63,202 nt of DNA from Folioceros fuciformis (Eukaryota). The translations under genes were made by a program, and so were the position numbers. The stretch covers positions 1 through 63,202 of the forward strand of contig JBNGIO010006432.1 of assembly GCA_049999805.1 (NCBI GenBank), given 5' to 3'. Every line of letters begins with the position of its first letter. The first letter of the stretch is position 1. Positions 3,431-63,202 of the stretch are shown here, in pieces. The notes under the pieces are model-generated. The model was not told where the DNA came from. It ran no database searches and saw only the letters and a list, made by a program, of their open reading frames with translations.

Positions 3431-4164
3431 TACAGCATTGTGTGAACCTCCAAAGTTTGGGGTAGTAGTTTGTTTTGGTTGGAAAAGGGTTAATAGTGGT
3501 ATGGTTTGGTTTTCTTTTTCTACTTATTTTCGCTAATTTTCCTTGATTTTCTGGTCATTTTTCGTATTTTTCTTTGTCCTAATTAGGTTAATTGACCAGG
3601 AAATAGTTGGTTTGGTTATAAGAGTGGGTATAGGTTTGGTCCCAGACCTGGGAAGGTTTAGGTTCGGTACCGGGCCACAGGGTTCGGAAGGTTTGAGTCT
3701 AGGTCTTGTGATTAGTTTAATATTTATTAAATATATATAATATTAAATAACAATATAATAATATTACATAATAAAAATAATAAAATAATGGTTTGAACAT
3801 AGGAACGGGTATCTGGGTATGTCAGTGTCAGGGGTCAGGGTCTGACGATAGGCTGGCTGATTGCTTGGCTGGCATGAACGGCCATGGAGGCCATGCCCTA
3901 GCTAGAGCTAGAGGCAGGGGTTGCGGCCGCCCCCATCTCCCCCCCCTCTCTCCCTTTCTCCCTTCCTCCTCCATTCCCTTCTTGCCCCCTCTTCTTCTTC
4001 TTCCCCTTCCCTCTCATCTCCCTTCCAATCTTTTTGTCCCTCTTCTTCTTGTGGATCCATATTGCAGGTAGGGGGAGAGACACCCAAAGTGTTGGGAGCG
4101 AAGGCTGCTACAGGAGGATCAGGAGCTGCGACCTTGCTCACCATCTCCGATTTCCAGATGCTCC

Positions 4165-10689: not shown

Positions 10690-11560
10690 TTTGAGGCTGT
10701 TGAAGGTTTGGGGCTTCTCGTGTGCACACACTGCTGCGTTTAGCAATCTCTCGCCTGCACCCTTCTGAAGCTTTTCTTGCACCTGATTCCATAACACTTG
10801 CGTGCCTCTTACAGGCATGTGCAAGGATGGGCAACCAGGACTTGGAGTATGGCAGGCAGCTGCATGCACAGATTGGAGGATAAGTCTAGAGGCTGATGCG
10901 TTCATTGCCAGACGTTAAGTGAACATGTATGTCAATTGTGGCAGCTTATATGACGCTCTACTTTCTTTCTTCGAAGCAACCTGATCAGAAACTCTGAATG
11001 TCATCACTGGAAGATATTCTCAGCAGGGGCATGGGGCAGGCAGCCTTTCTTATGCACGGACACATGCAAGGAGAAGGCACCTTTGCACCCAACTCTGTTA
11101 CATGTGTGTGCCTTCTTCAAGCATTTCCATGTGCGGGCACCCTGGCTTTGGACAAAGCGAAACAGATTCATGGGGAAATGAAGGAGTCTGGGCCTGACGC
11201 TGTTGTGGTTGTAGCCAAGGCTTCGGTTAACATGTATGCAAAATTGTGACAGCGTAAAGAACGCTCATGGCATGTTTGACGGGCTTGGTGAAAAGAATGT
11301 TGTGACGTGGACCATGATGCTATGATAGCAGCATACTTCCAGAAGGGCATGGCACAGGATGCACTCTCTCTGGACAGAGATGTGCAAGAAGAAATACCGT
11401 TGCTCTTTGCACCCCAGGTTTTCAACCTTCGTCTGCCTCCTACTAGCATGTGAGAGTGTGACAGCTTTCAACCTGGGAAGGCAGTTTCATGAAACATGGG
11501 CTTGAGGCAAGTGTGGTTGTTGCCGCCAGTTTGATGAACCTGTATGCTAAAGGTGAGTAG
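10690..11560 (+). pseudogene. PLS-class PPR pseudogene
   Basis: TLACLLQACARMG...GRQLHAQI, VNMYVNCGSLYDA, NSVTCVCLLQA...KQIHGEM, FDGLGEKNVVTWT, SLMNLYAKG in shifting frames with stops. Confidence 0.85.
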
Positions 11561-23011: not shown

Positions 23012-26007
23012 TTAACAGGGTGGCAAGGTGACATATTGACATAGAAAGAGGTCTGACAGAGACTTGCCATGCCTGTCCAGCCGACGTGAACAAGTGACCC
23101 CACCGTCGAGCACGCCCGTCAGAACAACATTCAAGGCACAAACTCCCCCGACCTGGTAGATCTTTATCTGCAGATGGCTGTCTTCCGTTGGTTGCCTTTT
23201 GGCCCACAACCATGTGGCACGTGGGTCAGGATTTGGTGGAGTGACCTCACCTTTTTCGCTTTCCAGGAGAGGTTCTGCTACCTGCTTCACCCACTGGGTG
23301 GTTATGACCTTCCTCAGTCTCGGAAGATCCGTTGGACAATGTGGGATCAGACTGACGTTTAGTTGGTTCCCCTTATCCCCTGTTCTGCTGTGTGCAACTT
23401 CATATAAAGGGATGCTGACGCCTCCGGGAGCAGGTTGACAAACAGGAGCACGCACACATGCTACGATTGCCGGTTCAGATTTCGGAATGCTAGTGCTGTT
23501 GCCTTGGTTGTACTGCTGCTCATTTGTTTTACCACATCCGCTGGGCCTCATGCTGCTCCTCCATGTTACCTTTTCTCGTGGCACCTGCAACATCCGGTTA
23601 GTGGGGACAGCTCACGGTACAACTAGGTTGGTTGTGTGCAGACATCAGGTTTTTCTGAGCAACACAGCTCGTACCAGGACCTTGGTCAATAGAACTTGAT
23701 CCTTGTATCCAGTACTGCAGAGATCCGAGGGGGCTGTGAGCTTCTTGACATCCATTTCATTGACAGAAACGTACACAATGCTTCTACAACAGATACTTGA
23801 GACCATTTGGATTTCATTGTAAGAATACCTGATGCCTCCCCCTCCGGCTGGACCATTGGTGTACAATGCCTCAAATTCTTCTGTGAACAATAGCGCATGA
23901 GCTCGTGACTGGAAGAGCCCATCCATACGCAGCCTAACTTCGGTAGCCAGCCCACCCATACGCTCACTACCCCTTAATCCGGCCTGAACTCTTGGCCACA
24001 CTCTCAAGCTGTCTACTCCGATCATATATGACAGAACATGCTTAGTGCTTCCAGGAACAGCTTCTTCCATCCATGCCCGCACCTATTTTCGCATAGTGAA
24101 AATGAGAAACGACGACCCTTCAATTTCAATACAACCGGTCGATTCTTGGATATAGCTAACCTTTGTCCTCACCAGATGATCTCCAGCAGCAGCTCTGTCT
24201 TCACAGTACGGGCCTCCGTATGATATCTCTCCCCACCCTTTCACCCCGCAGTGCTGTAAGCCCAAAAAAGTCCAGCCAATCAGATTAACAGGTGGTGCTC
24301 ATGGATGAGTTAAATTGCTGCTGCACTACAGTGACATTGATCGGAAAGGTATCTGACCTCTGGTATGAGGCGGAGCAGTCTCTCCGGGCACAAAGGGAGA
24401 GACGGCCGAGCACCTTTAGCTAGCACCCTGTCCTTGCTCTGTGGTTCGAATGATACACTTGTGAAGTCAACCACCTGTCCAGCATAACATAATTTTCAGA
24501 TCAAACAACCCAGCACACAAGACGCAATATGTGCACACGAACTAGGGTACAACACTACGCTCTCACCACATCGGGTGTGACGTACGAAGCAGGATCTCCA
24601 ATCTCATACAGAAGTTGCTGTGCACATGTGGCGGCACTAAGTTCTCCACCACTGCCAGGAGCTTTGCATAAGACAGTTGTGCCATCCCAGCTGACCTCAG
24701 CATAGGGCAATGAGACGTCGAGTAACTGCTGTATTGGGAACTTCCTGTGCTGGTCAGCTGTCGAGCCATGTTATCAACCAATTACAAATGTAGTTTACAT
24801 GCTTACACTCAAGCTATTGTCTCACAAAGAACATCAATAACAGACGAACAAGAGTAAGGGGACACCAGGGTGCATGTAGTATCCTCCAGTCAGCTGGCAG
24901 CCACATTCAAGGAGATGTCCAGCCAGGGTTCCTTGAGCTAGTAGGTCGAATTGATCCCAATCCCAACCGAGCTCATATACCTGGACGCCCAGGACAGACT
25001 ATTGAGGAATGTGTATGTCATAGCCCTACACCCTTCCCATGAGAGTTAGGGGGCAACTGTCGAGAAAAGTCCAGAGACAACTGCTTATTGCAGAGGAGTT
25101 TGATCCATCTTACCATGGGTGCTAAAAATAAAGCGGCATCAGCCGTCCGAGATGTAAGTATTACATTAGGATTTCCAGACTCCAAAGCATGAACAATGGG
25201 AGCTGCACCAAGGTACGTGCTGGAACCCTGCAAACCCTATCACCCTCATTCAACTTGCTCACCCAAACATCCAACACAAAAAATCATAACTTAGTGAGCT
25301 TAGAATTGCTCACCACAAGACTATTACTGTTTTGTTCTTCAAACACCACAGCAACATTCACTTGCAAATTCAACTCACTTGCTGTCTTCAGGACTTGACT
25401 CTGAGCTCCAAGCGGATCAGCTACAACGAAAAGAGATATCCATCAGCTGAAAGAGGCTTCAGAGCGTCTACAGCATTCCATTAACGCCAGGACTTACTTG
25501 CACCCATGTTGGTGACAATGCATACTGCCTGGTTCACTGCAACAGGCAGAAGTACCTCCATCCATGAAGCAACTGCATACAGAGAAAAATGGGTCAACAT
25601 TGCAGGTTATGACTTCACCACAGGGCACAACATAAATGGAAGACAACGTAAATTTTTGGCCGGAAGAGCTAATACTTCGAGGATCATAACCCAGGCCCCC
25701 ATCGGCCATTGCATCGAACCGGTTTGCAAGAGTCCGCTCAGCCAGACACTCGAGCACGAGGTAATGCAAGTTTGGGACTTGGGTCAGCAGCTTCAATGCA
25801 GCAGCAATCCTGTCTCCAGCGAAACCAGCTCCACATCCAACGCTAACTGTGTGCTTGCGTCGGATAGGATTTGGCCTCTGGAAAGATACAACACCGTGAA
25901 CGGCTGTGTGGAGGCACTCTTAATACTATTCAGCATGTGAATTGCCCCCTTCTTACCGATTTCACCACACAGTCGCTTGCAGACCCCACATCCCTGGAGT
26001 CAGCCAT
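23012..26007 (-). CDS. Acyclic terpene utilisation AtuA / DUF1446 family protein, multi-exon
   Basis: VGCGAGFAGDR...YLVLECLAERTL, YLGAAPIV...RTADAALFLAPM, GEISYGGP, LYTNGPAGGGG, AHSRTGDKGN, RRLDRHGKSLSD. Confidence 0.92.
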
Positions 26008-27202: not shown

Positions 27203-30200
27203 ATGTTTTGCCAGCAGCTTGGCTTGTCCTGGAATGATCATGGCAGAGATTTTCCCGGCAACCCCTCCGCAGGAACCAAGGGTCGTAAATGGCAGATGCA
27301 AACTACCGCCGCGACAAGTCTTGTTCAGCACCAAGTCCTTCACTATCAATCTCTTAAGACGGCATCCAGCTGTGGGCAGGAGATTGGCGTGGTGCAAAAG
27401 AGGTGCGCTTCTACGAAGGAAATTGCTATGTGGGCAGTGGAGTTATTTTGAATCCTATCTGAATTTGACAGAGTAGCGACTGCTAGTGTTGTGAACCTGC
27501 CACGTTCAATGCAGTGCAGGAGGGTGAGAAAGAAGCTGACCAGCGAAAACTTTATGTCCAACATGATCTACTCGGTCGAAGAAGATCTGAAAAGAAGGTA
27601 CTCCTACTTGTTTAACCCCTACATCAGCGCTAGCTCCAGCTCGGTTGGTCGGTGTCCGCAAAAAGTACCAGTGGATCTCATGGATATTTTCGCGCTTGAG
27701 AAGGTGGGGGAATTAGAAGAATGTGATCTCTTTGACCGCCAGCTATTGGAGACATTCCCAAAGAAAGAGCTGCAAGGGAAGGTTGTGATGGTCCGTTGTG
27801 ATCTCAATGTGGTCTTCAAAGATAGTAAAATTGTTGATGAAAACTTGCGGCTCATGGTACCCACAATTACCTATTTGGCTGAGGTTGGTTCAAAGGTGGT
27901 CCTTGTGAGTCATTGGACTGTATCAAAGGAAAACAGACAGACCTCATCAATTGCAGGTGTGGTGCATTATGCTTTGCTGTGTACACATCGTGGAGCCTCT
28001 TTCCGATTAACCTTGTCACTCACCTATTAGGATGTCTTACTCATGCAGATGCCTTATGTCGTCTTATGAACCGAAGAATTCTATGGACAACCCATGCTGT
28101 TGGGGAAGAGGCAGAGGAGAAGATTCGCAATTTGGATAATGGGGACGTGCTGTTGCTTGGAAATATGAAGCAGTACAAAGCCGAGGATGCCAATGATGCA
28201 GCCTTCTCCAGGGCTTTGACAGCCAAAGTGGACCACCTTGTCAATGATGCTTTCTGTGTGTCTCATAGAGTGCTTGCATCTACAGTGGGAGCAGCTTCTT
28301 TTACATGTGCCAGACTTGCAGGTCTACAGCTTGCGAAGGAGCTTTTCTTTTCACAGAATATTCTTCAGAGTCGCATACACCCGTTTGTAGCAATTGCATG
28401 TCCTTTTCCTTCCAAACTGATAAATATTTGCTTCGCACAAGTGCTATCTTTGCTCGAGCATCACATTCAGGGGGCTGGCTGCTACCTACATGCGGTATAG
28501 TTACTTGCTTTCAGATCAGGTATGGTGACCTCAAGGTGAGCTCTTTACTTTGCAGATTGGAGGGGGGAAGCTGTCAGATAAAGTGGATGCTCTTCATCAA
28601 CTGCTCTCTCGGTGCGACAAAATCTTTGTCACTGGAGCCATGGTGTTTCCCCTGCTTGAAGCAGCTGGTCTGCCAGTGCCTGCATCTTGTACAGAGCGAC
28701 ACATGTTATCAGAAGCTTTAGAGCTTCTCCTTTCAGCTCGTGAAAACCAGGTTGAGCTTGTTCTCCCTAAGGATTTGATGCTTGCCAAGGACAATGCATC
28801 ACATCTCACCACCAACATTACAATATCTCAGCCAGTCCCACATGGTGCGTTCATATTTGCTGCTTCGTGTCTTTGGGAGATCAGTTGGTAACAAATACCA
28901 TGATCCTGTGTTCTGCTTTACCGCCTCACATTTCTAGCGGTATGTGCAGGGTGGCAGCCTGTAGATCTTGGACCAGAAAGCTTGGACGACATAGCTCACT
29001 CCGTTAGGCAGAGCAAGGTATGCTTCGGCTGTTTTCTGTCTCTGACAAAGTATAGGACAACAGCTTCACACACACTCACAAAGTCTTACCTACACATATG
29101 CCCATCGCTGCAGATGGTTCTCTGGTTTGGTCCCTGTGGAATGGGCCATGCCGCAGGTTCTACCACAGGACTGCTCTCACTTGCAAGGGTTATATCAAAG
29201 CAAAGTGCACAAGGATGTATCACAGTTGCCGGAGGAAAAGACGTCGTCAAGGGACTACGAGAAGCAGGCGTGATCAGCATGATCAGCCACGTATCCGTAT
29301 GTGGAGCAGCATTTTGGCAGCTGCTGAAGGGACGTACACTTCCAGGAGTTGCTTCTCTCGACCCAGTTAAGACCTACTTCTGGCTCGTGGAATGTGCTCT
29401 GTGTTGGAATGGACGCTTGTCCCGCATCTTCTGCTGGTGTGGATGGGGAAAGACCGTACTTTGTTTCACCCCCTGCTGATGAGTCTGTCCTTACCCCCAA
29501 CATTCAGGTGGCACCCACGCCTCCAGACTGGGAAAGAGTCTACAAGGATCCCTTCCTCCCCCTTACTGTGGATATTGGATGTGGTGAGAACTGTGCCTTC
29601 AAGTCTGGTTTCTTTCTTGGCAATTCCGGAAGTGCGTCTTTTGGAAGTGAAAACAGCTGTCGTCATCTCTGGCAGGGAACGGGCTATTCATTCTGAAGAT
29701 GGCAGGCAGCTTCAGTTCGAGAAATTTTCTTGGGTTTGAAGTTTTTCCGAAGGTGTGAGTCTCACCACGTAATTCAACACGTTTACCAATCCTGCCCAGG
29801 CAACAGACCAGCGTCCAGCCAGCTGATAGTTGCTTGTTACTGCAGTTAGTTGCACGATGCGCTGATTCTGCTAAAGCCAACGGACTTCTTAACGCGTGAG
29901 TAACCATCGAATAAGGCCTTCCTTTGAGTCCCACGGTATTCTGCGGTGGATTCCTCTCATTCCGAGTGTGTCTTGCGGTACAGGCATTTCATTGCTGCAA
30001 ATGCCACCTCGTCCTACAGCAGAATAATCGCGTCCTATCCTGGAGATGTCTCTCTCGTCACCATACAGGTAACGCAGACAGCGGAGCTGTGTACACCAGA
30101 CCGCTCCGCCCCGTGTACAGGCCCTTGTCTCACACACTCCATGCATGCAGTGTCCGGACCCTAACTTCAGCAAACCAGATAGCCGGTGGAGGATGGTGCA

Positions 30201-36876: not shown

Positions 36877-38423
36877 ATGGCCTTCGTGTCCAAGTGGATG
36901 TGCTGCTGCGCGCGAGGCGAGGGCAGGTAATTTTAAGTTTCCGGACTGTGAATTTGGGTATCTTGTGATCCTGTTTAGGAAGGTGCATCCTGGGGCATGC
37001 GGGCGGGTATTTTCCGGAATTGTCTTTGTCGTGGGAAGTGGGATTGTTGTGTGTGAGCGTTGAATGTGCATCTGCTTGGGGGCGCTGTGCAGGCCCGATA
37101 AGAAGGATAAGGGTACGTGGCGGATATTCTCGTTGAAGGAGTTACAAGCCGCCACGAACAGCTTCAATTACGACAACAAGCTTGGGGAAGGAGGGTTTGG
37201 GAGTGTGTACTGGGGACAGCTCTGGGATAGCACGCAGGTGGGTTGCTGATTTCCACGATGTTGGTCATTGGTTGTGGATGTGTATGGGGATGGGGATGGT
37301 GTTTGGATGGGTCGGTGGGTGAGTGGGTGTATTGATGTGTATCGCTCGTTTGGTTTTTTTGTTTTGGTTTTGTGGAAAAGATCGCCGTCAAGAGATTGAA
37401 GGTGTGGAGCACGAAAGCGGAGATGGAATTTGCTGTGGAAGTTGAGATCCTGGGGCGAGTTCGACACAAGAATCTGCTTAGCCTTCGGGGCTACTGTGCT
37501 GAAGGGCAAGAGCGGCTCATTGTGTACGATTATATGCCGAATTTGAGCTTGCTGTCCCACTTGCATGGGCAATTCGCATCCGAGTCACAGCTCGACTGGC
37601 GAAGGAGGATGAGCATTGCGATTGGATCTGCTGAGGGCCTCGCGTAAGTGGTGATGCTGATTTTGCTTCGCGCCTTTCGTGTTGTTGTTACTTTAGGCTA
37701 GACATTGTGCCTGCCCCACCCCTACCGTCACCTCACCCGAAGAATGTGCTCTGTGTCAGGTACCTGCATCACTACTCCACGCCTCACATCATCCACCGTG
37801 ATGTCAAGGCCAGCAATGTTTTGCTTGACTCTAATTTTGATGCGCAAGTGGCTGACTTCGGTTTTGCCAAGCTCATCCCAGATGGTGCCACTCATGTGAC
37901 CACGAGGGTAAAGGGGACCCTGGGCTACCTAGCTCCAGAGTACGCTATGTGGGGGAAAGTGTCGGAGAGCTGCGATGTTTACAGCTTCGGGATCTTGTTG
38001 CTGGAACTCATCAGTGGGAAGAAGCCAATTGAAAAGCTGGGACCTGGGACGAAACGGACAATAGTCGAGTGGGCTGCACCTTTGGTCTTCCAAGGGAAAC
38101 TCGAAGACCTTGTAGACCCGAAGCTGAATGGCAGGTATTCAGAGGACGAGCTGAGAAGAGTCGTGCAGGTTGCAACAATGTGTGCGCAGAGCACCCCAGA
38201 AAACAGGCCCACCATGTTGGAAGTCGTACAACTCCTAAAAGGAGAAGTGAAGGATAAGGCCGCCAAGGTGGAAAATGGGCAAGATGGTGACACGAAGTTG
38301 AAGCTCGACACTGTCAAGTACGAGGAGGAATTGCTGGCTGCAGACGATGGATCCGCGGAGTCCAACTCCGGAAATACAAATGAAGGTATCCATGCCGCTC
38401 GGCCTGGGGAGAAAGTCCACTGA
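36877..38423 (+). CDS. PTI1-like receptor-like cytoplasmic kinase, 4 exons
   Basis: [65 protein letters not shown] introns join the ORF pieces. Confidence 0.95.
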
Positions 38424-44479: not shown

Positions 44480-44950
44480 AGAAAGAGCGTGAGAAGCAAG
44501 TGCTGTGACCCGTGTGTGCCTCCTACATGCAAAGGGACAGCAATGTGCGCAGCCCAGGCTGGGAGGCGGGGAGCAGCAGCAGCTTCACTGGCAAAGCAAA
44601 GAGCAAGGTGCTTGACCGTGATGTGGTTGTTGGCAACAGTTTGGTGGAAGTGTATGCAAAGCGTGGGAGCCAAGCAGAAGACGCTGAGGATGCGTTTGAC
44701 GGACTCCGCGAAAAGAAGGCGGGGTCATGGAATGCCATGCACGACGGTAGGGTATTCCCGTCCCGACACAGCATGTGGACAGCCTGGGGATCTTGAAAGG
44801 GTCTCGAACCGATGTGCTCTTCGGTGGCAGCGTGGTAGACATGTATTGCTGGTGTGGGAGCGTGGTGGATGCACATGGTCTGAAAGAGACGTGGGGTCCT
44901 GGAGACAGTGCACTGATCGCAGGCGGAGCCTATTAGGGAGTCAGTCAAGG
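44480..44950 (+). pseudogene. PPR gene relic
   Basis: LDRDVVVGNSLVEVYAKRGS...AEDAFDGLREKKAGSWNAM, then a second VDMYC...G motif; frameshifted. Confidence 0.7.
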
Positions 44951-46920
44951 AGTGTTGAACCCGTTTCAGATGAGCGCAATGGGAGACGATAGCGTGCCCC
45001 AGCCGGCATCACCTTCCGCTGTGTACTGCAGTGTGCAGTCAAGTGGGTCAGAAACCTTACACCGGTGGCCGGATTCGGGAGGACTCACTCACAGCAGATG
45101 CATGCCAAGAACCTTCCCAAGCCAGAGTCGCGCACGGAAGGCGAAGTTTCCAGGATTCACGAAAAGTGGCGTCGTGAAGGCACGGATAAGGCTAATGCTC
45201 GCTTTGCTCTCTCTTGTTTGTTGTATTGTAGATGATTTAATACTCACAAGTAGGATGTGTACATCGTATTTTTTTGAATGATGTAACTTCAGGATATGCG
45301 GCATGGGGACATCCTCTTCCTAGGTTCGTGAGATGACATGAAATCGAATGACTCTAATATGTTGTACAAAAGAAGACGAGTTTACTTTGAATTCTCGGTT
45401 GTTGTGCTGTCAGGCTCTCAAAGATCCGAAGAAGAATGAGAAGGAGATAGGACTGTCACAAATCACATGGAAGATTTGTAGGCTAGGCAAAGGAGCTTGG
45501 ACAAGAGGAGATCTGTGGAAGATAAGATAGTCGACATGAGGTGAAGGAGGTATACTATGTGCTTGGGTGAAGGAGGTATACTATGTGCTTGGGTAGTGGG
45601 TCAGTGTGTTGTTGGGCGGCCCAACAACACACTGACAGAATAAACTGACAGAATAAAATGTCACACATCGCATGGAAGATTTGTAGGCCAGACAAAGGAG
45701 CTTGGAGGAGAGGAGAGGAGATCTATAAGTCGACATGAGGTGAAGGAGGTGTACCATGTACCTTAGGTAGCGGCGGCCTAACAACACACTGACAAAAGAA
45801 AGCAAAATAAAGTGCATGAGAAGTGTGGTACCAATGGTGCTACATTCATGTTGTGTGTCGTGGTCATGATCTGTTCAACATGGACATGACATTGTGTGTA
45901 CGTGTAGGAGGATTAAAGGAGGAGATGCAGCCTATCCCATCATGAATCCTAACCATATTTGTACCTCACATAGTGCTCCTGTTGCTCCTCTTGTTCTGCC
46001 TCCTTGTAACTGTCGGCATTTGTATTCGCGAGGACATCATGAAAGTCAATAGGGATGACATAAGTACACCCAACATGAAAAGTGTTACATAACAAAAAGT
46101 TGAGGGCAAGGATTGCAACCCACGAAGTCCTTGCTGGATTGCTTCCTATGGCTACAACTCTATCTCTGACAGTTGCCCATTGCTTTCCGATAGAGACAAA
46201 GACATGCACTTCTTTGTGGCTTGTTGGATGCCGATTGTTTTTCTGACAGAGACAAAGACATGCACTTCTTCTATGGCTTGTTGGACATTCAATGCATTGC
46301 TTTTGGACATAAGCATGTAGAGACAGAGACATGCACTTCTGTTGCAGCTTGGATGACACCCATTGCATTGCTTTGGGACATAGACACATGGACAAAGACA
46401 TGCAAATCTTCTACAACTTATGGCACAAACAACAATACGCACTTCTATTATTGAGCCATTATTGAGCCGAGAGCCAACCAACGACATCTAGCTTATGGTT
46501 TCATACTAGTTTTCAATGTTCCATCTTCATGTTGGACTTGCAGTATTACAAGCTATATTCCCAAAACTATCTTCCTTTTGGTATAAATAGTTACATGTAC
46601 CAACACAGCACAACATGCAATTATAATATACATATTTAGTAAACTCATCTACATATGTTTGTTTTAAATATACATATAAAATTGAAATCAGGAGAGGACT
46701 TCAAAAAAGTGATTTGTATCATGGTCAATCGAGATGGACGAGAATTTTACTCATCCCGAAGAAGAAAACCGCCATAATTTGACTGTAAACCAGTGTAGTG
46801 AATGTTTCGTCTTTGATCTTAGGTGGACCAAGTTCACTCAAAAATCTTTACGCAATCTGGCGCCATCTGCAACCTCCCTGCCCACCCCGGGAAAATGCGG
46901 TGACGTGGAGTAGAAAGGCT

Positions 46921-51556: not shown

Positions 51557-52779
51557 CTATGGACACAAAAGCAGAACCTTGGCCACCTCCAGCATTTCGG
51601 GCCGGAGGTTAGGATCGTTGGAAACGCAGCTGATGGCCACAGATGCCAATCTGAGGAATTCTTCGGGGCAAAATTTCTGCCCCAGCTTGGGATCCGCCAG
51701 GTTAGTGATTGCTCCATCAGCATGAAGCTGGTGTGCTGAATGCAGCAGCGATGGCTGGGTTGCAGCAGATGGTTTCCTCCCACTCACGAGCTCCAGGAGC
51801 AGAAGCCCGAAACTGAAGACGTCGCTTTGGGTCGAGAATGTGGAATGTGATGATTCTTGGAGCTCCGGGGCGAGGTAATCGCAGCAGCTGGCCTTGAGCG
51901 GGGCGTCGCCTTCCAGCAAGTTCTGGAATCCGAATTCGGCGAGAGTGGGATGGAAGTTGGAGTCCAGGAGGATGTTGCTTGCTCTAAGTCCGCCATGGAC
52001 TGTCCGATGAACGCGGTGCAGATGTCTGCCATCAGTCCATCCAAAGAACAATTGAGTTCAGACAACTTTTAGAAAGAGAAATCACTCGCAGTTGGGGTAT
52101 GTCAGGCTACGGCTGGGATGTGGAATGCTCTACTTACAGCAAACCCTCGGCCGCTCCAAGGACGATGCGCACTCGTCGCTCCCAGGTGAGGACGTTCGCC
52201 GATGCTTTGTTCCCGTGGAGGTGTGCCAAGAGACTGCCGTTAGGCATGAAGTTGTGGACCAGCATCCGCTCTCCTCCTTCGACGCAAAACCCTCGGATGC
52301 TGAGCAGGTTCTTGTGACTGATCTGTGCCAGGACGTTCACCGCGTCGCAGAATTCCTGCTCAGGTTTGGTGGCCACGGCGCTCATCCTCATCACAACGAT
52401 CTGCAGCAAAGCAACCAGAATCCGGCAAGGAGGAGACGAAATGTCACATTTTCACGAGAGATCAGAAAGCATCCGTCACACAAGAGGTCTGGGAAGGGCG
52501 TGCTACTTCGTTTCTGTCCTCCAGCCTGCCGTGGTAACTTGGACCGAGGGATCCTGCGGCGGTGACCAGGCCGTGCTCGTCCACAATTTTGGCATTCCCG
52601 CTTCGGAATCTTCTGGCATCACAAAGAACAGCATAGCTTACTGAGACTCCTCACTCTCGATCTCGCTGGTCAGTAAATATCACACATCGTCACATCCGAT
52701 CTCACCTTCTCTGTCCATGCTTCCTTCGCCTGACCAGGCCGAGAGTGACAGCGTTTAGCAGCTTGCGGATGCGCGCCAT
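51557..52779 (-). CDS. PTI1-like cytoplasmic kinase paralog, predicted pseudokinase, multi-exon
   Basis: ISHKNLLSIRGFCVEGGERMLV, YLAPE, SDVFSFGLLLLELVSGRKP are present, but catalytic motifs are altered (IVVMR, HGGLRASN, AEFG). Start inferred. Confidence 0.82.
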
Positions 52780-53656
52780 CCCCCGACCTCAATCCTCGAA
52801 AACGTTCTCCCCGGTCAGAGAGCCTGGAGAAGGGATGGAGGAAGTCCCTCCTTCAGACTGGAAACCACCGCTTCCCGCAGAAACTAAATACGGAGAGGCA
52901 GTGGATCCCCGTGATCAAGACAGCCAAGACTGGTTGGGGTTTCACCCTTCTCCTTTTTCATACTTCTACATACTCTCTGTATTTTGTTCACGATTAAACC
53001 TGCTGAAGCTGGTTGAGATCTTTTGCGCGTCTTCTCCGTCGGCCATGTTTGAGGCAAAGGGTTGGCTGATGGCGGTGGCAGTGGTGGGTTCAGGTGCATC
53101 GCTGGTGGGACCTCCCCTGTTTCATTTGCTGAGGAAACGATGTCGGACAAGGAGTGCGAAAACACAGGTTACTTGAAGCAAGGTCTGGCTGGCGATGCGG
53201 CTATGGAGGGAGTGAAGGCAGCCAGCACATTCTCAGGCGTGATGTAGAGAAAGTCACGTGGAAGACCTTCAGGTACTGGGATGGGGAAGCTCAAGTGCCG
53301 AAGAACGTAGGACGTCGTCTGATCATTTCTAGGTTTAAGAACGTTTGAAGTTCGTCATTCCCTCATGTGTCATATTGGTACGTAGGTACTCATTTCTATT
53401 CAGGAGAAGAAAGTGAGGAGACCTCTGTCCAGATCCGTTACTCTGTGGCCATCCCGCCAAGAACCGGAGACAAAGGATAGCATCAGGCAAGCCCGTAAGG
53501 CCCAATTTAAAATTGCTGGCGTACTCGGGTAGACAGACAGTTTGTTCGTAGCTTTAAAATCAATTAAAGGGTTCGGGGTTGGCTGAGGTTAACACTACCT
53601 AACCAGCACTGGTGCAGGAATCGATCAAAGCAGGCACCGCACAAGCCTGCTTGGCG

Positions 53657-54724
53657 ATGGAGACGAGGGTATGCGTCCGGGGCCCAATGAAGCCATGTTA
53701 CGAGAACATCCTCACACCCGAGGCACTGCAATTCGTTGCGGATCTGCACCGGAGAGTGCATCTCAGCGTGAAGGATGCCATGGAGCGACGGCGAGAGCAA
53801 CACGCGCGTTTCGCAGCGGGCGGCTTCCCGGAATTGGATCCAGCGACGAGGGAAATCCGGCAAGGGGAATGGTCATGTGAAGGCGTCGAGCCAGAGATCC
53901 TATCCTCCCGGCGACGGGTGCAGATCAAATTCTTAGGTCCAGAATCGCGGAAGACGCTCATGGAATTAGTACGAGGATTTCCATCCGACAGCGAAGCCGA
54001 GGAGGATGTACAGTCGGAGATGAATGACGAAGAGCTCAGCCTTGCTTGGGACAGCATAATCCTAGAGCACATCAGCCTCCGGGAATTCGTACACGGCGAT
54101 ATCACCTACGGCGACCTCGAACAGGACACGACTTACAGCATCGACGACGAGCATTCCCCCTTGTTGATGGTCTGTCCCCGCCCCTGGCATCTAACGGAGC
54201 CAAACGTGGAGGTGGACGGGGAGCCAGTTGTAGCCGCGGTCTTCGATTTCGGGCTCTTCTTCTTCCACAACCACGCCGTCTTCAGAGACAGGCACGGCGG
54301 GTGCGGCCCTTTCTTTCACCTCCCTCAGATGGAGCACTCCCGGGAGGCCGCCATCTGGAAGACCGTGTTCGAGGTCGCGGAGACTGCAGTTCAAGCTCCT
54401 CGGCATTCCATCCGCGGGACCTTGATCATCGAGACCCTGCCGGCCGTGTTCCAAATGCACGAGATGCTCTATGAGTTGCGGGAGCATTCGGGCGGAATGT
54501 GTGCCAAAATTGGCGAGTCGTCCCACTTCGACCTCAACAAGCCTACCGACAGGGAGCTTTCTAGGGAGAGAATCACGTTCAAGACTCGGACCCTAATACG
54601 TGAAGCTGTTAATCTCGTCCGCGCAACTTGCTGGTTGCGCGGGGTCCAATTACTTTTACCGCGTGATCGTCCGTCGTTCACTAGAATGTCTATTATGAGA
54701 CGTGAAGCGCGAGGTTCTTCATAA
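53657..54724 (+). CDS. Malate-synthase-like ORF, intronless, lacking the C-terminal half
   Basis: ILTPEALQFVADLHR; DPATREIRQGEW; PRPWHL; FDFGLFFFHN; GPFFHLPQMEHSREAAIW; LIIETLPAVFQMHEMLYELREHS; similarity decays afterwards. Confidence 0.8.
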   Translation: METRVCVRGPMKPCYENILTPEALQFVADLHRRVHLSVKDAMERRREQHARFAAGGFPELDPATREIRQGEWSCEGVEPEILSSRRRVQIKFLGPESRKTLMELVRGFPSDSEAEEDVQSEMNDEELSLAWDSIILEHISLREFVHGDITYGDLEQDTTYSIDDEHSPLLMVCPRPWHLTEPNVEVDGEPVVAAVFDFGLFFFHNHAVFRDRHGGCGPFFHLPQMEHSREAAIWKTVFEVAETAVQAPRHSIRGTLIIETLPAVFQMHEMLYELREHSGGMCAKIGESSHFDLNKPTDRELSRERITFKTRTLIREAVNLVRATCWLRGVQLLLPRDRPSFTRMSIMRREARGSS

Positions 54725-54869: not shown

Positions 54870-55290
54870 TTCAGCCCTTTTGCCTTGGCGAGTACATGTT
54901 CGTCCAGAACAAGCTCGTTGGCTGGGTTTCACTTGCTGCAATCGGGAAGAAAAGAGACACCAAGGTTCCGTTACGTAAGGGGCGCTCGCAATCTCCCCTC
55001 CCCGAGAAGATTTGACCACCGTGTTCGAGGCCGTCGTCACCGCAAACAGCGCTCCTCGGCGTTCGATCCGGGCCACCACCGTGCGCATCGAGATGCTCAC
55101 GGCCGTGTTCCAAAGGCATGAGATGCTCTTCAAGTTGAGGGAGCATTAGGCGGCCACCCGACATTGGACAACGCCTTGAAGCATATCTTCCCTTCCATCT
55201 CCCGATCGGGGACCAGGAGCGCATGAGTCAGATCTTTCGAATTAGCGCTGATCGATGCAGCCGTCGCGGAGTCCGGATCCTCTTTGGAGC
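54870..55290 (+). pseudogene. Second, degenerate malate-synthase-like fragment in tandem
   Basis: TVFEAVVTANSAPRRSIRATTVRIEMLTAVFQRHEMLFKLREH* parallels 54360-54490. Confidence 0.75.
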
Positions 55291-55455: not shown

Positions 55456-58359
55456 TTAGGGTCGACCCTTGCAGCTGCAACAGCCGGCTGCGAACCGATG
55501 CACACGGAAACCATCCCTCACAACGATCTGTCTCTGTTCCAGCCTCGACATGATCTCGGTAGAACTGTGGCAGTCACTGCACATGCGTAGATTTTTCGTT
55601 ACCAGTAGAGGTGCCCCGTTAGGTGTGTTCAAGAGACCAAACGCCAGAGCTAGCTTCTCCGCATGACCGCAGAGGGCGTCTTCCTTTTCCTTCTCACACC
55701 CTGGCTTCAACACCAATTTTGTGTGAGGTACGTGGCCTCCTTCCTGCTTCAGACGTGAATTCGAGCTGTCTACCTTGTGCGCAATATCCTCTCTCCTTTC
55801 TCCTACCAGGAATGAATGTACCTGCTTATTCACCTCCACGGTCGCCACTGCAGGTTTCTTGTTAGCTCCTGCTGCCATTCTCTGTGTTTCAATCCTGTTC
55901 ACGTCGGTCCACCTACCTGCATCTGCGTACGCGTTGGCCATGAGAACATGAGCTGACGCGTTTTTGGGGTCCACCTTAACAATGCGTTCAAAACACCAGA
56001 TGGCCCTTTCTATATCACCGTGACTTTTGCAGGCGTTCAACAGAGACGTCAAGCCCACAACGTTACTTTCAAATTGGCCCTCGCATGATAATAGCATCTT
56101 CTCTGCCTCATCTAGATGGCCAGCACGACCAAGAAGATCAATCATGCAGGTGTAATGTTCAAAAGTAGGTTTGATGCCGTGCTCCTCCGCCACAGAATCG
56201 AAGTATTTGCAACCCTCGTGGACCAGTCCCTCATGGCTGCATGCTACTAGAAGGCAAGTGAAAGTGGCATCATTAGGCTCCACACCCGCAGCTAACATCT
56301 CCTCGAAACAAGCTAGTGCCTTGTGACCTTCATCACACGCACCATACCCAGCAATCAGCGCTGTCCATGTCACCACATCCTTTCTGTTCATGTTGTCAAA
56401 GACCTGGAGTGCATCGTCCAGTTCACCACATTTTGCATACATGTCCACCAGGGCGTTGCCCACCACTAAGTCATCCAGCAGTCCTCTTTCAACAATCTGT
56501 GAGTGCAGTTGCATGGCCTTCTGTAAGGCACCAGTGCTTGCGCAGGCCTTCAGAAGGCAAGCGAAAGTAACATGATCAGCCAAAATGAGGCCCGCCTCCT
56601 CCATTTGTCCATACACAACAAGCGCCTCTTGGCCGAGTCCTTGCTGTGCATAACCAGCAATCAGGACGGTCCATGTCACCACATTCTTGGTGGCCAAGCT
56701 CTCAAAAACCTGGCGTGCATCGTCCAGTTCACCACATTTTGCATACATGTCTACAAGGCACGTGCCCACCACCACGTCATTCAGCAGTCGTCTTCCCACA
56801 ATCTGTGAGTGCAGCTGCCTGCCCTTCTGCAAGGCACCACTGCTTGCACAGGCCTTCAAAAGGCAAGCAAAAGTGACACGGTCAGCCAAGATGAGGCCCG
56901 CCTCCTCCATCTGTCCATACACAAGAAGCGCCTCCTGGCCGAGTCCTTGCTGTGCATACCCGGCTATCAAGGCAGTCCACGTCACCACATCCTTGGTGTT
57001 CATGCTGTCAAAAACCTGGCGTGCATCTTCCAGTTCACCACATTTTGCATACATGTCCACCAGGCAGTTACCCACCACCACGTTATCCACCAGTCCCCTT
57101 CCAACAATCTGTGAGTGCAGCTGCCTGCCCTTCTGTAAGCCACCCGTGCTTGCACAGGCCTTCAAAAGGCAAGAAAAAGTAACATGGTTCGCCACTACCA
57201 GCCCCTCCTGCTCCATTTGTCCATACACAACAAGTGCCTCATGTCCGAGCCCATGCTGGGAATAGCCAGCAATCAGCACCGTCCATGTCACCACATCCCT
57301 TGTGGCCATGCTGTCGAAAACCTGGCGAGCATCTTTCAGTTCGCCACATTTTGCGTACATGTCCACCAGGCAGTTGCCAACAAACACGTTAGTAGAAACC
57401 CCACTCTGCACCACATCACAGTGCACTTTTCTGCCAGATTCTAAGTCGGCAGCCATTGCACAAGCTTGAAGGGCAGCCACGAAGACGTGAGCATCCGCCT
57501 TCACTCCTGAACTACGCATCTCATGGTAGAGTTGTACGGCCTCGTTAGGTTTCCCATTCCTAGCGTAGGCCGAGATTATGGAAGACCACATGAAGGCATC
57601 CGGTTCGCCCACCCTCTTGAGCACATCCATGGCCTCCTCTAGCCTACCTCCGCATGCATACATGCGCAAGATATGGTTCCCCAAGTATGCATTCGACTCG
57701 TACCCAAGTTGGACACTGAGGGTATGAACTCGTCGCCCCACAACCAAATCCTTCCTGGCAGTACACAGTTTAAGCACAGTGCAAAACAGGTCGGGAGAAA
57801 CAGCAGAGCCTGTCTGCGCCAGATATTCCAGGGCTCTCACGGCCTCAAGAAGCCTCCCCTGCCCACATAACAAGCTCACGGTTCCAGCCGTCACAACCCC
57901 CAATTCCAATCTTGCACGCCGCCCAGCTCCAATATTATCTGAAGGAAAGGCAGCATGGCTCATCTGCAAATCCAAGGAAACGAGCTGCTCATCAACCCAA
58001 GCTGGCTTGCACATGTTGTTTAACCACAGCACCTCGCCGGACCCCTTCCGCCGGAAATCAGGTGAACGGGAGCGCTTCTTATCTCGTCTGTTGTCCCACC
58101 ACATGGTCGGGTCCAGAAAGAATTGCTTCCACAAATGCTCCTGGCCCTGCTCCTGCTCCTGGCAACCACCATCTCTGGACAACCCATCCCTACCAACACC
58201 CTGTCTCGGAAGTGGACGTGCTGCGCTGCTGCACCTGGAGGCTTTGTCTGCCAGGGCTTGACTTCCTAAGCTGAGTTGACTGGGCGGAGCTCGACGAATC
58301 TCTGCACCCACACCAGATTGCTGGGTCCACAACGAGTCTGGCTGCCATACTGTAGCCAT
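55456..58359 (-). CDS. PLS-class PPR protein with C-terminal DYW:KP (GRP-type) deaminase domain and N-terminal PDF motif; intronless, 967 aa
   Basis: Repeated P-L-S motifs; E motifs; KKPAVATVEV in place of the PG box; HAEKLALAFGL; CSDCH; terminal CSCKGRP. Confidence 0.95.
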   Translation of the reverse strand: MATVWQPDSLWTQQSGVGAEIRRAPPSQLSLGSQALADKASRCSSAARPLPRQGVGRDGLSRDGGCQEQEQGQEHLWKQFFLDPTMWWDNRRDKKRSRSPDFRRKGSGEVLWLNNMCKPAWVDEQLVSLDLQMSHAAFPSDNIGAGRRARLELGVVTAGTVSLLCGQGRLLEAVRALEYLAQTGSAVSPDLFCTVLKLCTARKDLVVGRRVHTLSVQLGYESNAYLGNHILRMYACGGRLEEAMDVLKRVGEPDAFMWSSIISAYARNGKPNEAVQLYHEMRSSGVKADAHVFVAALQACAMAADLESGRKVHCDVVQSGVSTNVFVGNCLVDMYAKCGELKDARQVFDSMATRDVVTWTVLIAGYSQHGLGHEALVVYGQMEQEGLVVANHVTFSCLLKACASTGGLQKGRQLHSQIVGRGLVDNVVVGNCLVDMYAKCGELEDARQVFDSMNTKDVVTWTALIAGYAQQGLGQEALLVYGQMEEAGLILADRVTFACLLKACASSGALQKGRQLHSQIVGRRLLNDVVVGTCLVDMYAKCGELDDARQVFESLATKNVVTWTVLIAGYAQQGLGQEALVVYGQMEEAGLILADHVTFACLLKACASTGALQKAMQLHSQIVERGLLDDLVVGNALVDMYAKCGELDDALQVFDNMNRKDVVTWTALIAGYGACDEGHKALACFEEMLAAGVEPNDATFTCLLVACSHEGLVHEGCKYFDSVAEEHGIKPTFEHYTCMIDLLGRAGHLDEAEKMLLSCEGQFESNVVGLTSLLNACKSHGDIERAIWCFERIVKVDPKNASAHVLMANAYADAGRWTDVNRIETQRMAAGANKKPAVATVEVNKQVHSFLVGERREDIAHKVDSSNSRLKQEGGHVPHTKLVLKPGCEKEKEDALCGHAEKLALAFGLLNTPNGAPLLVTKNLRMCSDCHSSTEIMSRLEQRQIVVRDGFRVHRFAAGCCSCKGRP

Positions 58360-60676: not shown

Positions 60677-63202
60677 CTACCGGCTCATCTCGGACATGAA
60701 CCGCTCATATTCTGACTCAACGGCATTGTTCTGCTGGCCACTTGAGGCAGAGACACTAGCAGTGTTTGCCCAAGGGGGTGGCATGCCACCAGGAGGTGGA
60801 GGTGGCGGCTGTGAGGGAGGCGCACTCGTTGGCGGAGGCGGGGGTGCTGGATAATAGCCAGGATATTGAGGCATGGGCATGTAAGAGCTGCTTCCCATCG
60901 GGCCAACAGGTGCACTAGAAGGTCGTGTTCCTGGCCTGGGACCCATGACATTAATAGGGCTTGGAGGCATCCCAGGAATGCTGGGTCCAGCAGCAGGTGT
61001 ACCTGGCAGTGTCCCTGCAGCAGGTGGCTGTGCTGGTTGACCAGGTGGAGGGGGTCCTGATGGCGGAGCCCCTTGAGAAGGGAGTCCTGAGTACACACTG
61101 TAAGGTCCTCCATAAATTGGAGGAGGAGGACCACGGGGAGGTCCACCGGGAGGTGGCGGTCCCGCAGGTGGTGGTGGCCCATACATATTACCTGGAGGCG
61201 GACCATATGGACTGTATGGCGGATGACCACCAGGGGCCACCCAGGGCGGCATCCTCATCTGACCGGCTGGGGGTCCACGAGGTGGTTGTTGCTGTGAAGA
61301 CTGCTGGGATGGTGGGACCTGCGGTGGTGGCTGTTGCTGCTGTGGAGGAGGATATCCTCCACCCATCATCTCCATTCCGCCTGGATGTGGCCCACCAGAA
61401 GGAGGAGGACGACCTGCAACTCGCACTGCTAAGATTTTACCATCAAGTCTGTATCCGTTCATATGAGTAACAGCCTGCGCTGCACAAGTGGAATCAGTAT
61501 ACTTCACAAACCCATACCCCTTGCTAGATCCATTCATTCTGTCACGAATGACCTTAGCATCCTCCACCCGACCAAATGGAGAAAACAACCGCAAAAGACC
61601 CTCATCGTCCACAGAATTGGGCAAGTACCCAACATATAAATTTGAGTCATCACCATCCTTACTGAACTTCGAACCACCACTAGTACCTGGAGGTCCTTGG
61701 TAAAAGCTATTAGTAAACCCCTGCTGTTGAGGCATCCCACCTGTTCCCGGAGGCGTGCCCATAGGAGGACCCATGGCTCCTGCCCCTACAAATGTGTCCG
61801 ACAGACTACCCAGCCCTGGACTGCCACCCATCCTTCCTGCACCCATACCTCCACTGCCTGGTGCTCCAGCACCAGCACTTCCAGAACCCGACCCACTTCC
61901 AGCACCTGCTGACCAGGGCCCTCCCTGGCCCTGCGGGCCTGGAAGGGATAGCTGAGGTCCAGCCGGCCCTGCGCTGCGCCCAACCTCTCCACTGCCAGTA
62001 CTGCCATCACCGCCTCCCAATTCAGCCAGAAAACTCTTGTACTCATCATCCATCTTGTTACCTTGCGTAGAGCCCTTGAGCGGACAGTCAAGGGTAGGAT
62101 GCCCACCGTCACCACAGATGCGGCAGCTCACATCACTCTTGAAGGTAGAATGACGGGCTGGGCATGCATATTGACGATGACCCGGCTCCCCGCATAACCG
62201 ACAGTACTCATCATCTCTGATAGTCCCATTAAGAGCTGCAAGCTCCCGAAGTTGAGCCCGCTTGTGCTCATTTCTCCCTTCTTCCACAGGCACCAGCAAT
62301 TTCTCGACCATCCCACCGGCTTTCTCCAAGCCATCAGCTGTATCTGCCTCTATCAACACATGCAGATCTTCATTTTCAGAAGGATCTGGCTTCATGTCGC
62401 GCCTTTGCTGTGACCGACCTTCTTTCACGGAGCCCTTGCCCCGTATCACTATCTTGGCACCGGTTTCCCTTTCCATCCGCTTCTGGGTGTTACCACGAGG
62501 GCCAATGATGAGACCAATGAAATTGTACCCAGGATACTCCTTAACGGGAATGTACAACTTCTTGTACAATTTCGGTGGCTTGTAGTCCGCAGGAGGTTTG
62601 AAATGAGGATTCTTCTTTATCAGCTGCGTGATAATCTCCTGTCTCTCTCTCGTCAACTTCTCTCGTGCCCTATACTCGCGGGTGTTGATCCTTATCCCCA
62701 TATTATCATAGATTGGTTCTGGAGACGGAGACCTCGCACCATCGGGCCTCTCATCAAGAACCTACAAGAAAACCCACTCCATAAGCAGACCCAAACCCTC
62801 CTCTCGACTCTTACAGGTTCCTCTGACCCACATTGTCAAACCCACAAACAACCATGCGAAAAGACACCCACCAACGCAGTCCACAAACCACAGAACATCA
62901 GCAACCCCTTCAAGCAATTCTGCCATACCTGCCCCGTGGACAACTTCCTGTTGATATCCAGCAGCTTGATATTCAGCGCCTGCAACTCCGGATCCAACTC
63001 CACTCCACCAGTCAGCTCCTTCACAAACTCAGGAAGCTGAATCTGGCCGAGCAGCTGCCTGGGGGCATCATCAGCCCACCTGGACTTACGCTTCCTCACA
63101 CTCCCTTCCCCATCCTGATTCTCCCCCTCCCCATCCGGCTGCGGCCCCCACCTGCTCCGCCTCCTCTTACCAGAACCGCCATCCGCCGCAGCGACCTGGC
63201 TC
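60677..63202 (-). CDS. SF1: Splicing factor 1 / branchpoint-bridging protein; 5' end outside the window, intron ~62762-62928
   Basis: [24 protein letters not shown]2 [15 protein letters not shown]; two CCHC knuckles; RRM (LYVGYL...KGYGFV); Pro-rich tail. Confidence 0.97.

Follow-up and report, generated by a model that had tools for sequence, protein, structure and literature searches.

An intact gene for a candidate GRP-type PPR-DYW:KP RNA editing factor carrying an N-terminal OSB-type PDF motif

Described KP proteins

To our knowledge, enzymes that turn uridine into cytidine within RNA are known only from U-to-C editing. All of the KP/GRP proteins assayed in the literature that was searched were synthetic (consensus-designed), and no native one was found there. 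According to PMC9478123, the KP class is limited to lineages with U-to-C editing, its matching to U-to-C sites by the PPR code was reported, and GRP and DRH are the two hornwort variants of the KP domain. The same paper describes two designers based on the GRP consensus, KP2 and KP3, which gave 26% and 22% U-to-C editing in E. coli, respectively, with C-to-U editing undetectable. Lys88 is essential for U-to-C editing by the KP designers, and its substitution turns KP2, KP3 and KP6 to C-to-U editing. The synthetic KP6 carries out C-to-U editing in vitro and in human cells; U-to-C editing could not be reconstituted in vitro. In the published model, the lysine attacks C4 and a Schiff-base intermediate forms, which is then resolved. 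Consensus-designed KP proteins stall at the protein-RNA cross-link in bacteria. The four hornwort genomes described contain between 1,583 and 2,308 PPR genes each.

A complete gene with a GRP-type DYW:KP domain

The stretch of DNA analysed here (the window, 63,202 nucleotides) is plant nuclear DNA. Positions 55456..58359 on its minus strand, on which all features described below are located, hold a single unbroken open reading frame of 967 amino acids followed by a stop codon. Together with the Pfam matches, this defines a complete intron-less CDS for a PDF-PLS-E1-E2-DYW:KP protein (P0001), which is laid out as a presequence, one OSB-type PDF motif, (P1-L1-S1)x5-P2-L2-S2-E1-E2 and a DYW domain of 133 aa. 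The exact sequence was absent from a collection of 15 billion proteins in an exact look-up; the best relative, P0002, is colinear with it and 59% identical over 910 aa. The presequence (aa 1-73; 58141..58359) may be an organelle-targeting peptide; its composition is 8 R+K, 7 D+E, 11 S+T and 8 A in 73 aa, and Pfam gave no match on aa 1-170. A bacterial-type scan, irrelevant for a plant nuclear gene, returned no promoter-like sites and three terminator-like ones against 3.8 expected. Elsewhere in the window, malate-synthase fragments were found at 53612-54724 and 55018-55146, retroelement pieces lie in the neighbourhood of the gene, and a decayed PPR remnant occupies ~10704-11505, which was read from an ORF listing and whose frame at ~10767-11243 holds four stops.

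We consider it probable, at roughly 80%, that a seedless land plant, most likely a hornwort, carries this gene in its nucleus, and that the product edits organellar RNA site-specifically as a factor of the PPR-DYW:KP, GRP type. The evidence for the type comes from the C-terminal domain. A preliminary description had assigned the span 55456-55862, which corresponds to the stop codon plus residues 833-967, to a GRP-ending DYW:KP deaminase; the domain is now set at aa 835-967 (55459..55857). The Pfam family DYW_deaminase (PF14432) matched with E 9.7e-31 for the whole protein and 4.2e-32 for the C-terminal 164 aa. A phmmer search against PDB chains gave 1.3e-42 for the synthetic PPR-DYW protein 9kfx and ~2e-27 for the DYW domains of OTP86 and DYW1; at the sequence level, the similarity to DYW domains is thus far beyond chance. 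The AF2 model reached a pLDDT of 96.9, and Foldseek superimposed it on 9kfx_A, a solved PPR-DYW:RNA complex, with a TMq of 0.89 and an rmsd of 1.9 Å over 200 columns.

The hallmarks named in the preliminary description were all found again. The KP box reads N-K-K-P-A-V-A-T-V-E-V where PG-type domains have K-x-P-G-x-S-W-I-E-V; within K835-P-A-V-A, Ala837 and Ala839 are shared with 29/31 and 28/31 KP rows of the alignment, whereas the HSE rows have Gly and Ser there in 32/33. The zinc-binding His and the catalytic Glu, whose roles are taken from OTP86 H892/E894, lie in H899-A900-E901 (55657..55665), that is, HAE rather than HSE. The KP-typical Ala between them is present in 31/31 KP rows and is Ser in 33/33 HSE rows, while the His and Glu are invariant in 68 rows. 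The CxxC site is likewise intact: C927-S-D-C930-H931 (55567..55581) provides the CxxCH zinc ligands, with C, C and H invariant in the 68 rows and the two cysteines equivalent to OTP86 C920/C923. K922 (55594..55596) occupies another invariant column and is Lys88 in KP numbering, proposed in the literature as the nitrogen donor and cross-linking residue; M926 is Met92 when counted from K835. The domain is three residues shorter than the PG type (xHP is missing), giving 133 aa from K835, and it ends with G965-R966-P967 (55459..55467) in place of D-Y-W, directly before the stop. These hallmarks match the KP/GRP features, including HAE, that are given in PMC9478123 and discussed in PMC11332814.

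The alignment of 68 rows has 13 invariant columns, all of which are kept in this protein, and at each of the eight columns that separate the 31 KP rows from the 33 HSE rows the protein has the KP residue. Six positions depart from the KP consensus of at least 80% (V841, A860, E935, G950, F951 and G965), two of which, E935 and G965, are GRP-typical, while the other four are not. E935 lies at the Lys position after CxxCH, which is Lys in 27/31 KP and 32/33 HSE rows and T, E, E and Q in the other four GRP rows. An Asp/Lys pair is thereby lost, as the Asp of DYW is gone and the Lys called K103 in the paper, which our own count puts one position off that number, is replaced by Glu. G950-F951 is private to this protein; the KP rows have Ala-His there (27/31 and 26/31).

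In the 88-row tree, the protein falls in a GRP clade of five (SH-aLRT 98). In the 42-row tree, the GRP clade (100/98) lies inside the KP clade (97/91). Placement among the DYW:PG domains had been set beforehand as a check on the preliminary description: grouping the protein with 15 HSE...DYW rows was rejected by the AU test on 42 rows (p 0.0018), in which, as in the 88-row test, the groups were named after a tree had been seen. The preliminary description withstood this check. With 88 rows, a clade of the other 31 KP rows that leaves this protein out was not rejected (p 0.255). That constraint still permits a sister position and, therefore, the stricter 42-row test was used instead; nesting of the protein inside KP, rather than a sister position, rests on the smaller tree. 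Motifs, discriminating columns, trees and the AU test against a PG placement thus uphold the earlier assignment to DYW:KP, GRP type. The GRP group has already been described, and the protein is a further member, clustering with four other GRP-ending proteins and sharing up to 73% identity with any GRP domain retrieved.

A comparison was made with the GRP-type PPR-DYW:KP proteins of hornworts, for which PMC9478123 cites Gerke et al. 2020, and with KP2/KP3. As described there, they have the same P2-L2-S2-E1-E2-DYW C-terminal architecture, the same KP box, HAE, three-residue loss (133 aa), Lys88 and Met92; like the present protein, they do not have the conserved Lys after CxxCH, and both end in GRP. 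Compared with KP2/KP3 by their descriptions, the protein is natural, has 18 PPR motifs and bears an N-terminal PDF motif; it differs from the KP rows in its private Gly-Phe in place of Ala-His. With the DYW:PG C-to-U factors (OTP86, DYW1, 9kfx) it shares the fold, zinc ligands, catalytic Glu, active-site Lys and the PLS-E1-E2 RNA-reading module. However, identity to these is 32-44%, the PG box, the Ser of HSE and the DYW end are all replaced, and the reaction expected of the protein would run in the reverse direction.

By homology, then, the protein would carry out U-to-C editing. An alternative, which we regard as unlikely, is that it is a working factor that performs C-to-U or bidirectional editing at its native site and is no dedicated U-to-C editor. 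The protein has every residue needed for canonical deamination by zinc and glutamate, KP6 edits C-to-U as noted above, and Lys88 substitutions flip KP2, KP3 and KP6 to C-to-U, which suggests that the direction of editing is finely balanced. Lys88 is, however, intact in this protein, and the GRP-based KP2 and KP3 gave U-to-C editing in E. coli with C-to-U undetectable. The confinement of the KP class to U-to-C lineages, and its matching to U-to-C sites by code, also argue against this alternative, both as stated in PMC9478123.

The PPR tract, its repeats and the candidate target

The PLS-type PPR tract (aa 155-766; 56062..57897) comprises 18 motifs, (P1-L1-S1)x5 + P2-L2-S2, matched by the Pfam PPR families with E-values of 1e-92 to 1e-44; our own segmentation supplied the 5th and last residues. 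The E1-E2 region follows at 55858..56061, with a Pfam E_motif match at aa 780-842 (E 2.5e-15) and four helices in the AF2 model. An intragenic tandem repeat with a 306-bp period and 3.4 copies (56343..57389; TRF, 85% matches) consists of the S1-P1-L1 units aa 325-426, 427-528 and 529-630 and part of the next unit. Identity between the units is 78-85% at the protein level and 83-88% at the DNA level. Between the three units, dN/dS is 0.20-0.21 at a dS of 0.36-0.56, and 5/6 specificity (code) positions vary, compared with 24/96 other positions (Fisher p 0.007). Purifying selection acts on the internal units, and the differences between them cluster at the specificity positions. A dN/dS of ~0.2 together with five of six differing specificity positions argues for a working gene, and the low ratio at such dS values indicates that the constraint long persisted after the duplication. 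The earlier statement that the gene is intact is supported by the open 2.9-kb frame, the 13/13 invariant columns of the 68-row alignment and the dN/dS between repeat units.

These data also bear on a second alternative, namely that the gene is a paralogue that has recently become redundant or is decaying, with a frame that is still open and a product that has ceased to edit any site. The number of PPR genes per hornwort genome makes turnover likely, the private G950 and F951 fall at conserved KP positions, gene debris (malate-synthase fragments, a PPR remnant and retroelement pieces) lies nearby and the internal units are homogenised. Against this, a 2.9-kb frame has stayed free of stops with every invariant column kept, and the constraint between units has been accompanied by preferential divergence of the specificity positions; we consider decay very unlikely. 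It is highly improbable that the protein is an RNA-binding PPR protein with a non-catalytic DYW:KP domain, such as one that stabilises RNA or assists by giving or receiving a domain in trans, because, although some DYW proteins work in trans with E-type partners, the domain is complete (both zinc-site ligand sets, catalytic Glu and Lys88) and is preceded by its own full PLS-E1-E2 tract.

For a U-to-C editing factor of this kind, import into the plastid or mitochondrion would precede RNA binding. Each of the 18 PPR motifs would then recognise one base via its 5th and last residues, so that ~18 nt of single-stranded RNA would be bound. With S2 at -4, a register that we assume, the P and S motifs would read 5'-..UG.UA.UG.AG.UA.A...[U]-3'. 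E1 and E2 would bring the DYW:KP domain into place above the uridine to be edited, and U would be converted to C by Zn (H899, C927, C930), E901 and K922 (Lys88). The U-to-C activity, RNA target, organelle targeting and host are all predictions. The 5th/last residue pair is shared with P0002 in only 8/20 motifs and, therefore, no conserved target can be argued. A hornwort-like host would be consistent with PMC9478123, according to which hornworts have two variants, DRH and GRP. No named hornwort sequence was present among the matches of the protein, and a search of the ESM Atlas with the relative P0002 returned only generic PPR/DYW clusters of Streptophyta.

An N-terminal PDF motif and its possible meaning

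The PDF motif is a stretch of ~50 aa with a Pro-Asp-Phe signature that is common to OB-fold organellar ssDNA-binding (OSB) proteins, and single-stranded nucleic acid binding was reported for AtOSB1 (both in the review PMC6963530). One copy was located by phmmer and alignment at aa 74-131 of the present protein (57967..58140). The 58-aa segment keeps the pattern L-W, F-F, P, W-W-D-N-R, K, P-D-F, K, L-W, P-W-V, Q-L, L-D; the six invariant and 12 nearly invariant columns of the motif were all checked on an aligned block. An exhaustive phmmer search with the N-terminal segment yielded 582 representatives at E<=1e-3, of which 126 reached E<=1e-10, and a word-index search with a 76-aa N-terminal piece among longer proteins gave six candidates, none of them significant. 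Among 38 sampled matches to the motif, 18 have an SSB OB-fold upstream of it and five have PPR repeats; one match is named OSB1-like, and the SSB-fold proteins bear 1-13 copies. The motif was modelled by AF2 with a pLDDT of 83, and Foldseek found no match to this model in the PDB at E<=0.001. Compared with the OSB proteins, the conserved pattern is the same, but here the motif occurs once, at the N-terminal end of a candidate editing factor of the PPR type that has no OB fold.

The motif is an unexpected addition to this candidate editing factor. It is conceivable, though we hold this only tentatively, that the protein is a natural U-to-C editor with an OSB-type PDF single-strand-binding motif before its PPR tract, in a PDF-PPR fusion class. 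Such a class would span the KP editors P0002, P0007 (GRP) and P0012 (DRH), which were read as hornwort, in addition to fern and lycophyte PLS proteins (P0199, P0244). No description of a PDF-PPR fusion was found in the searchable literature, a search that lay outside Gerke 2020, Gutmann 2020 and the supplements. The motif would probably add non-specific affinity for single-stranded nucleic acid or nucleoid tethering, which is speculation.

Hornwort genomes hold many such genes and, therefore, the value of this one is that of a test object and not of the discovery of a kind. As an intact natural GRP-type candidate that shows signs of selection and whose 18-motif code can be read, it could serve to probe the native reaction, the release step and the target. 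Less expected are the duplication of intragenic units that then diverged at their specificity positions, and the fusion of a PDF motif to an editor. If the latter reading is true, the motif could keep the editor attached to nucleoids or to transcripts as they are made, or could help to hold the RNA through a slow cross-linking chemistry.

The DYW:KP domain and its GRP ending

The span 55456-55862, which the preliminary description had read as a GRP-ending DYW:KP deaminase, forms the 3' terminus of one open frame of 2.9 kb on the minus strand (55456..58359) that encodes 967 amino acids followed by a stop. The GC content of the gene is 53%, against 49% across the window. Pfam detected PPR repeats over aa 155-766 (best E 1e-92), followed by an E motif (aa 780-842, E 2.5e-15) and a DYW_deaminase domain (aa 875-965, E 9.7e-31). 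By our own segmentation, from which the motif boundaries are taken, the protein consists of a presequence (aa 1-73), a conserved N-terminal motif, eighteen PPR motifs arranged as (P1-L1-S1)x5 + P2-L2-S2 (aa 155-766), E1 and E2 (aa 767-834) and a DYW domain of 133 aa (aa 835-967). The C-terminal 164 aa match three distinct PDB sequences, namely the synthetic PPR-DYW protein 9kfx (1.3e-42), the DYW domain of OTP86 (1.9e-27) and DYW1 (2e-27).

The domain starts with K-K-P-A-V-A-T-V-E-V, H-A-E occupies aa 899-901 and C-S-D-C-H aa 927-931, and G-R-P directly precedes the stop. The KKPAVA box, HAE, CxxC and GRP end reported earlier are all present in the translated frame. With K835 as residue 1, the active-site lysine becomes number 88 and the Met ahead of CxxCH number 92, in agreement with the numbering of DYW:KP proteins in PMC11845758 and PMC9478123. 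According to PMC9478123, DYW:KP domains are confined to hornworts, lycophytes and ferns and are distinguished from DYW:PG domains by changes in the PG box, at the HxE site and in the final triplet; HAE has a highly conserved Ala, the xHP residues are absent from most KP domains and V95 is replaced by M92. The same paper describes two hornwort KP variants, DRH and GRP, and states that GRP proteins lack the Asp of DYW, whose partner Lys is changed to Glu. The differences listed in PMC11332814 are Ala for Ser, a deletion of three to four residues and the KP sequence as such. All the KP and GRP features taken from these two papers are found in the window protein. At the column of its Glu935, Lys is found in 27 of 31 sequences of DYW:KP type (KP rows) and 32 of 33 of the HSE...DYW (PG) type (HSE rows), while the four other retrieved GRP-ending proteins have T, E, E and Q; by our count this column is one position off the 'K103' of PMC9478123.

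A 68-row alignment has eight columns in which the KP rows (31) can be told apart from the HSE rows (33) at a level of at least 70% in each group; the window protein is of KP type at all eight. Four residues depart from the KP consensus of at least 80% and are not GRP-typical: V841, A860, G950 and F951. The Gly-Phe at aa 950-951 (window 55510-55515, minus strand) belongs to a stretch conserved in the DYW:KP domain, R-D-A-H-R-V-H, and takes the place of Ala (27 of 31 KP rows) and His (26 of 31).

Relatives, trees and predicted fold

The exact protein is absent from a collection of 15 billion protein sequences, in which aa 780-967 gave 91 matches. The top 30 or so are assembly-derived and carry HAE (HKE in two) together with KP-type boxes; their last three residues are GRP (P0002, P0004, P0007 and P0008), DRH or a similar triplet, or something else. 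Lower in the ranking are named KP-like proteins from ferns and seed-plant proteins of the ordinary HSE...DYW type. The best relative, P0002, is colinear over 910 aa with 59% identity. It cannot be called a same-target orthologue, since both specificity residues are shared in only eight of 20 motifs.

A quick maximum-likelihood tree was made from 88 DYW domains, after P0044, P0075 and P0091 (odd tails) and P0080 (signature missing) had been dropped from 92 proteins. The window protein was placed in a five-member GRP-ending clade (SH-aLRT 98), nested in a 32-row HAE/HKE clade (90) and separate from all HSE rows; five HSE/HTE rows grouped with the PG rows. A more careful tree was based on 42 of these rows, the 46 omitted including four flagged as long-branched, and supported the GRP clade (100/98), a KP clade of 25 rows (97/91) and an HSE clade of 15 rows (100/96). 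In both AU tests, the groups were named only after a tree had been seen. With 88 rows, a tree in which the remaining 31 KP rows form a group that excludes the window protein could not be rejected (delta lnL 15.4, p 0.255), which says little on PG membership because this constraint still permits a sister position. With 42 rows, forcing the protein to group with the 15 HSE rows costs 39 lnL and is rejected (p-AU 0.0018). The proposed DYW:KP (GRP) class is borne out by the hallmarks, the eight KP columns, the GRP clade and this rejection.

An AlphaFold2 model of aa 767-967, built from the 68-row alignment, has a mean pLDDT of 96.9 and a pTM of 0.88. When the model was compared with the PDB using Foldseek, the best match was 9kfx_A, the synthetic protein in complex with its RNA (E 3.9e-20, TMq 0.89, rmsd 1.9 A over 200 columns). 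OTP86 and DYW1 came next among these model-based matches, and then, much weaker, bacterial cytidine-deaminase toxins. The protein resembles OTP86 in that the zinc ligands and catalytic residues given in PMC7611903 (H892, E894, C920, C923 and K915) have aligned counterparts, H899, E901, C927, C930 and K922, respectively, all in invariant columns.

Internal repeat and N-terminal PDF motif

A 306-bp tandem repeat (56343-57389, minus strand; 3.4 copies, 85% matches) corresponds to three S1-P1-L1 units that are 78-85% identical among themselves. Their identity to the units of P0002 is only 49-67%, and the P0002 units are 47-64% alike mutually. As the units resemble each other more than those of P0002, they were duplicated or homogenised within this lineage. 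The dN/dS between units is 0.20-0.21 (dS 0.36-0.56). The three units disagree at five of their six specificity positions, compared with 24 of the 96 remaining ones (one-sided Fisher p 0.007). Such a pattern would be expected if duplication of a constrained scaffold was followed by retuning of the residues that read the bases. Together with the open 2.9-kb frame and the preservation of all 13 invariant alignment columns, the dN/dS and specificity divergence of the units argue, at the level of sequence, for a live gene. V841, A860, G950 and F951 and the debris-rich neighbourhood count against full typicality.

The N-terminal motif (aa 74-131; window 57967-58140, minus strand) has no Pfam match. 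Searched exhaustively with phmmer, 1.84 billion representatives yielded 582 matches (E<=1e-3), of which 126 reached E<=1e-10; many contain two to 13 copies of the motif. Among 38 sampled matches, Pfam placed an SSB OB-fold ahead of the motif in 18 (16 above the curated cut-off), PPR repeats in five, a kinesin motor in one, other weak matches in two and nothing in 12. One match, P0201 from Drosera capensis, is named OSB1, mitochondrial-like. The aligned block of the window protein conserves the pattern L-W, F-F, P, W-W-D-N-R, K, P-D-F, K, L-W, P-W-V, Q-L, L-D. Judged by its sequence, the segment is the PDF motif of OSB proteins, a motif of about 50 aa that suffices for ssDNA binding in AtOSB1, according to a review (PMC6963530). 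AlphaFold2 predicts a helix, a small sheet and a helix for aa 60-150 (pLDDT 83), a model for which Foldseek found no PDB match.

The motif also precedes the PPR tract in two other GRP proteins (P0002 and P0007) and one DRH protein (P0012), the only carriers among the 101 PPR relatives P0002-P0102, and it is N-terminal in one fern PPR protein (P0199, Adiantum capillus-veneris) and one Selaginella moellendorffii PPR protein (P0244). The five PPR-bearing phmmer matches lack a deaminase signature. Our literature search, which did not cover Gerke 2020 and Gutmann 2020, found no paper on a PDF motif-PPR fusion. The presence of this motif at the N-terminus of a candidate PPR editing factor is modestly surprising.

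Genomic setting and proposed editing chemistry

The window is plant nuclear DNA in which gene debris is abundant around the PPR gene. Ty3/gypsy-like retroelement pieces comprise a reverse transcriptase (479-1042, minus), a zinc knuckle (in 2240-3325, minus) and RNase H plus integrase (4034-5716, plus). Decayed PLS-type PPR remnants lie at about 10704-11505 and at 44593-44984 (plus; tblastn to the PPR tract, E down to 7e-19), with L- and S-motif-like pieces scattered over different frames with stops. Exon-sized frames for an AtuA ferredoxin-like domain (23012-23593, minus), phosphoglycerate kinase (27913-28500, plus) and two protein-kinase domains (37707-38423, plus; 51557-52051, minus) are probably exons of ordinary nuclear genes. 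A 370-aa frame (53612-54724, plus) matches malate synthase over its N-terminal domain and roughly half of its TIM barrel and then ends. Just 3' of the PPR gene, a second fragment of 43 aa (55018-55146, plus) shares 65% identity with residues 251-292 of that frame, and both look like pseudogene pieces. The upstream neighbour on the same strand is a splicing factor 1/BBP-like gene (60677-62701, minus), a 674-aa frame with SF1 helix-hairpin, KH and RRM domains. A hornwort origin is consistent with the GRP type and with large hornwort PPR families; 1,583-2,308 PPR genes are given for the four hornwort genomes listed in PMC13386178.

Each PPR motif is usually decoded from its fifth and last residues. 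By this code, the P and S motifs would read U, G, U, A, U, G, A, G, U, A, A, with no base assigned to the L motifs and the first P1. With S2 at -4, which we take to be the register, the target of the DYW domain would be a uridine lying four bases further 3' than the S2 position.

In E. coli, the GRP-consensus designer proteins KP2 and KP3 gave U-to-C conversion of about 26% and 22%, respectively, without C-to-U editing (PMC9478123). Lys88 is essential, and its replacement turns such enzymes to C-to-U editing (PMC11845758). The synthetic proteins are reported to remain cross-linked in bacteria, and KP6 also to deaminate C in vitro (PMC11332814). No experimental assignment of a native hornwort KP protein to its site was found in the literature searched. 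For the window protein, we infer U-to-C activity, target and host. It joins an already described class (DYW:KP, GRP) and is moderately interesting as a naturally occurring protein on which U-to-C chemistry could be studied.
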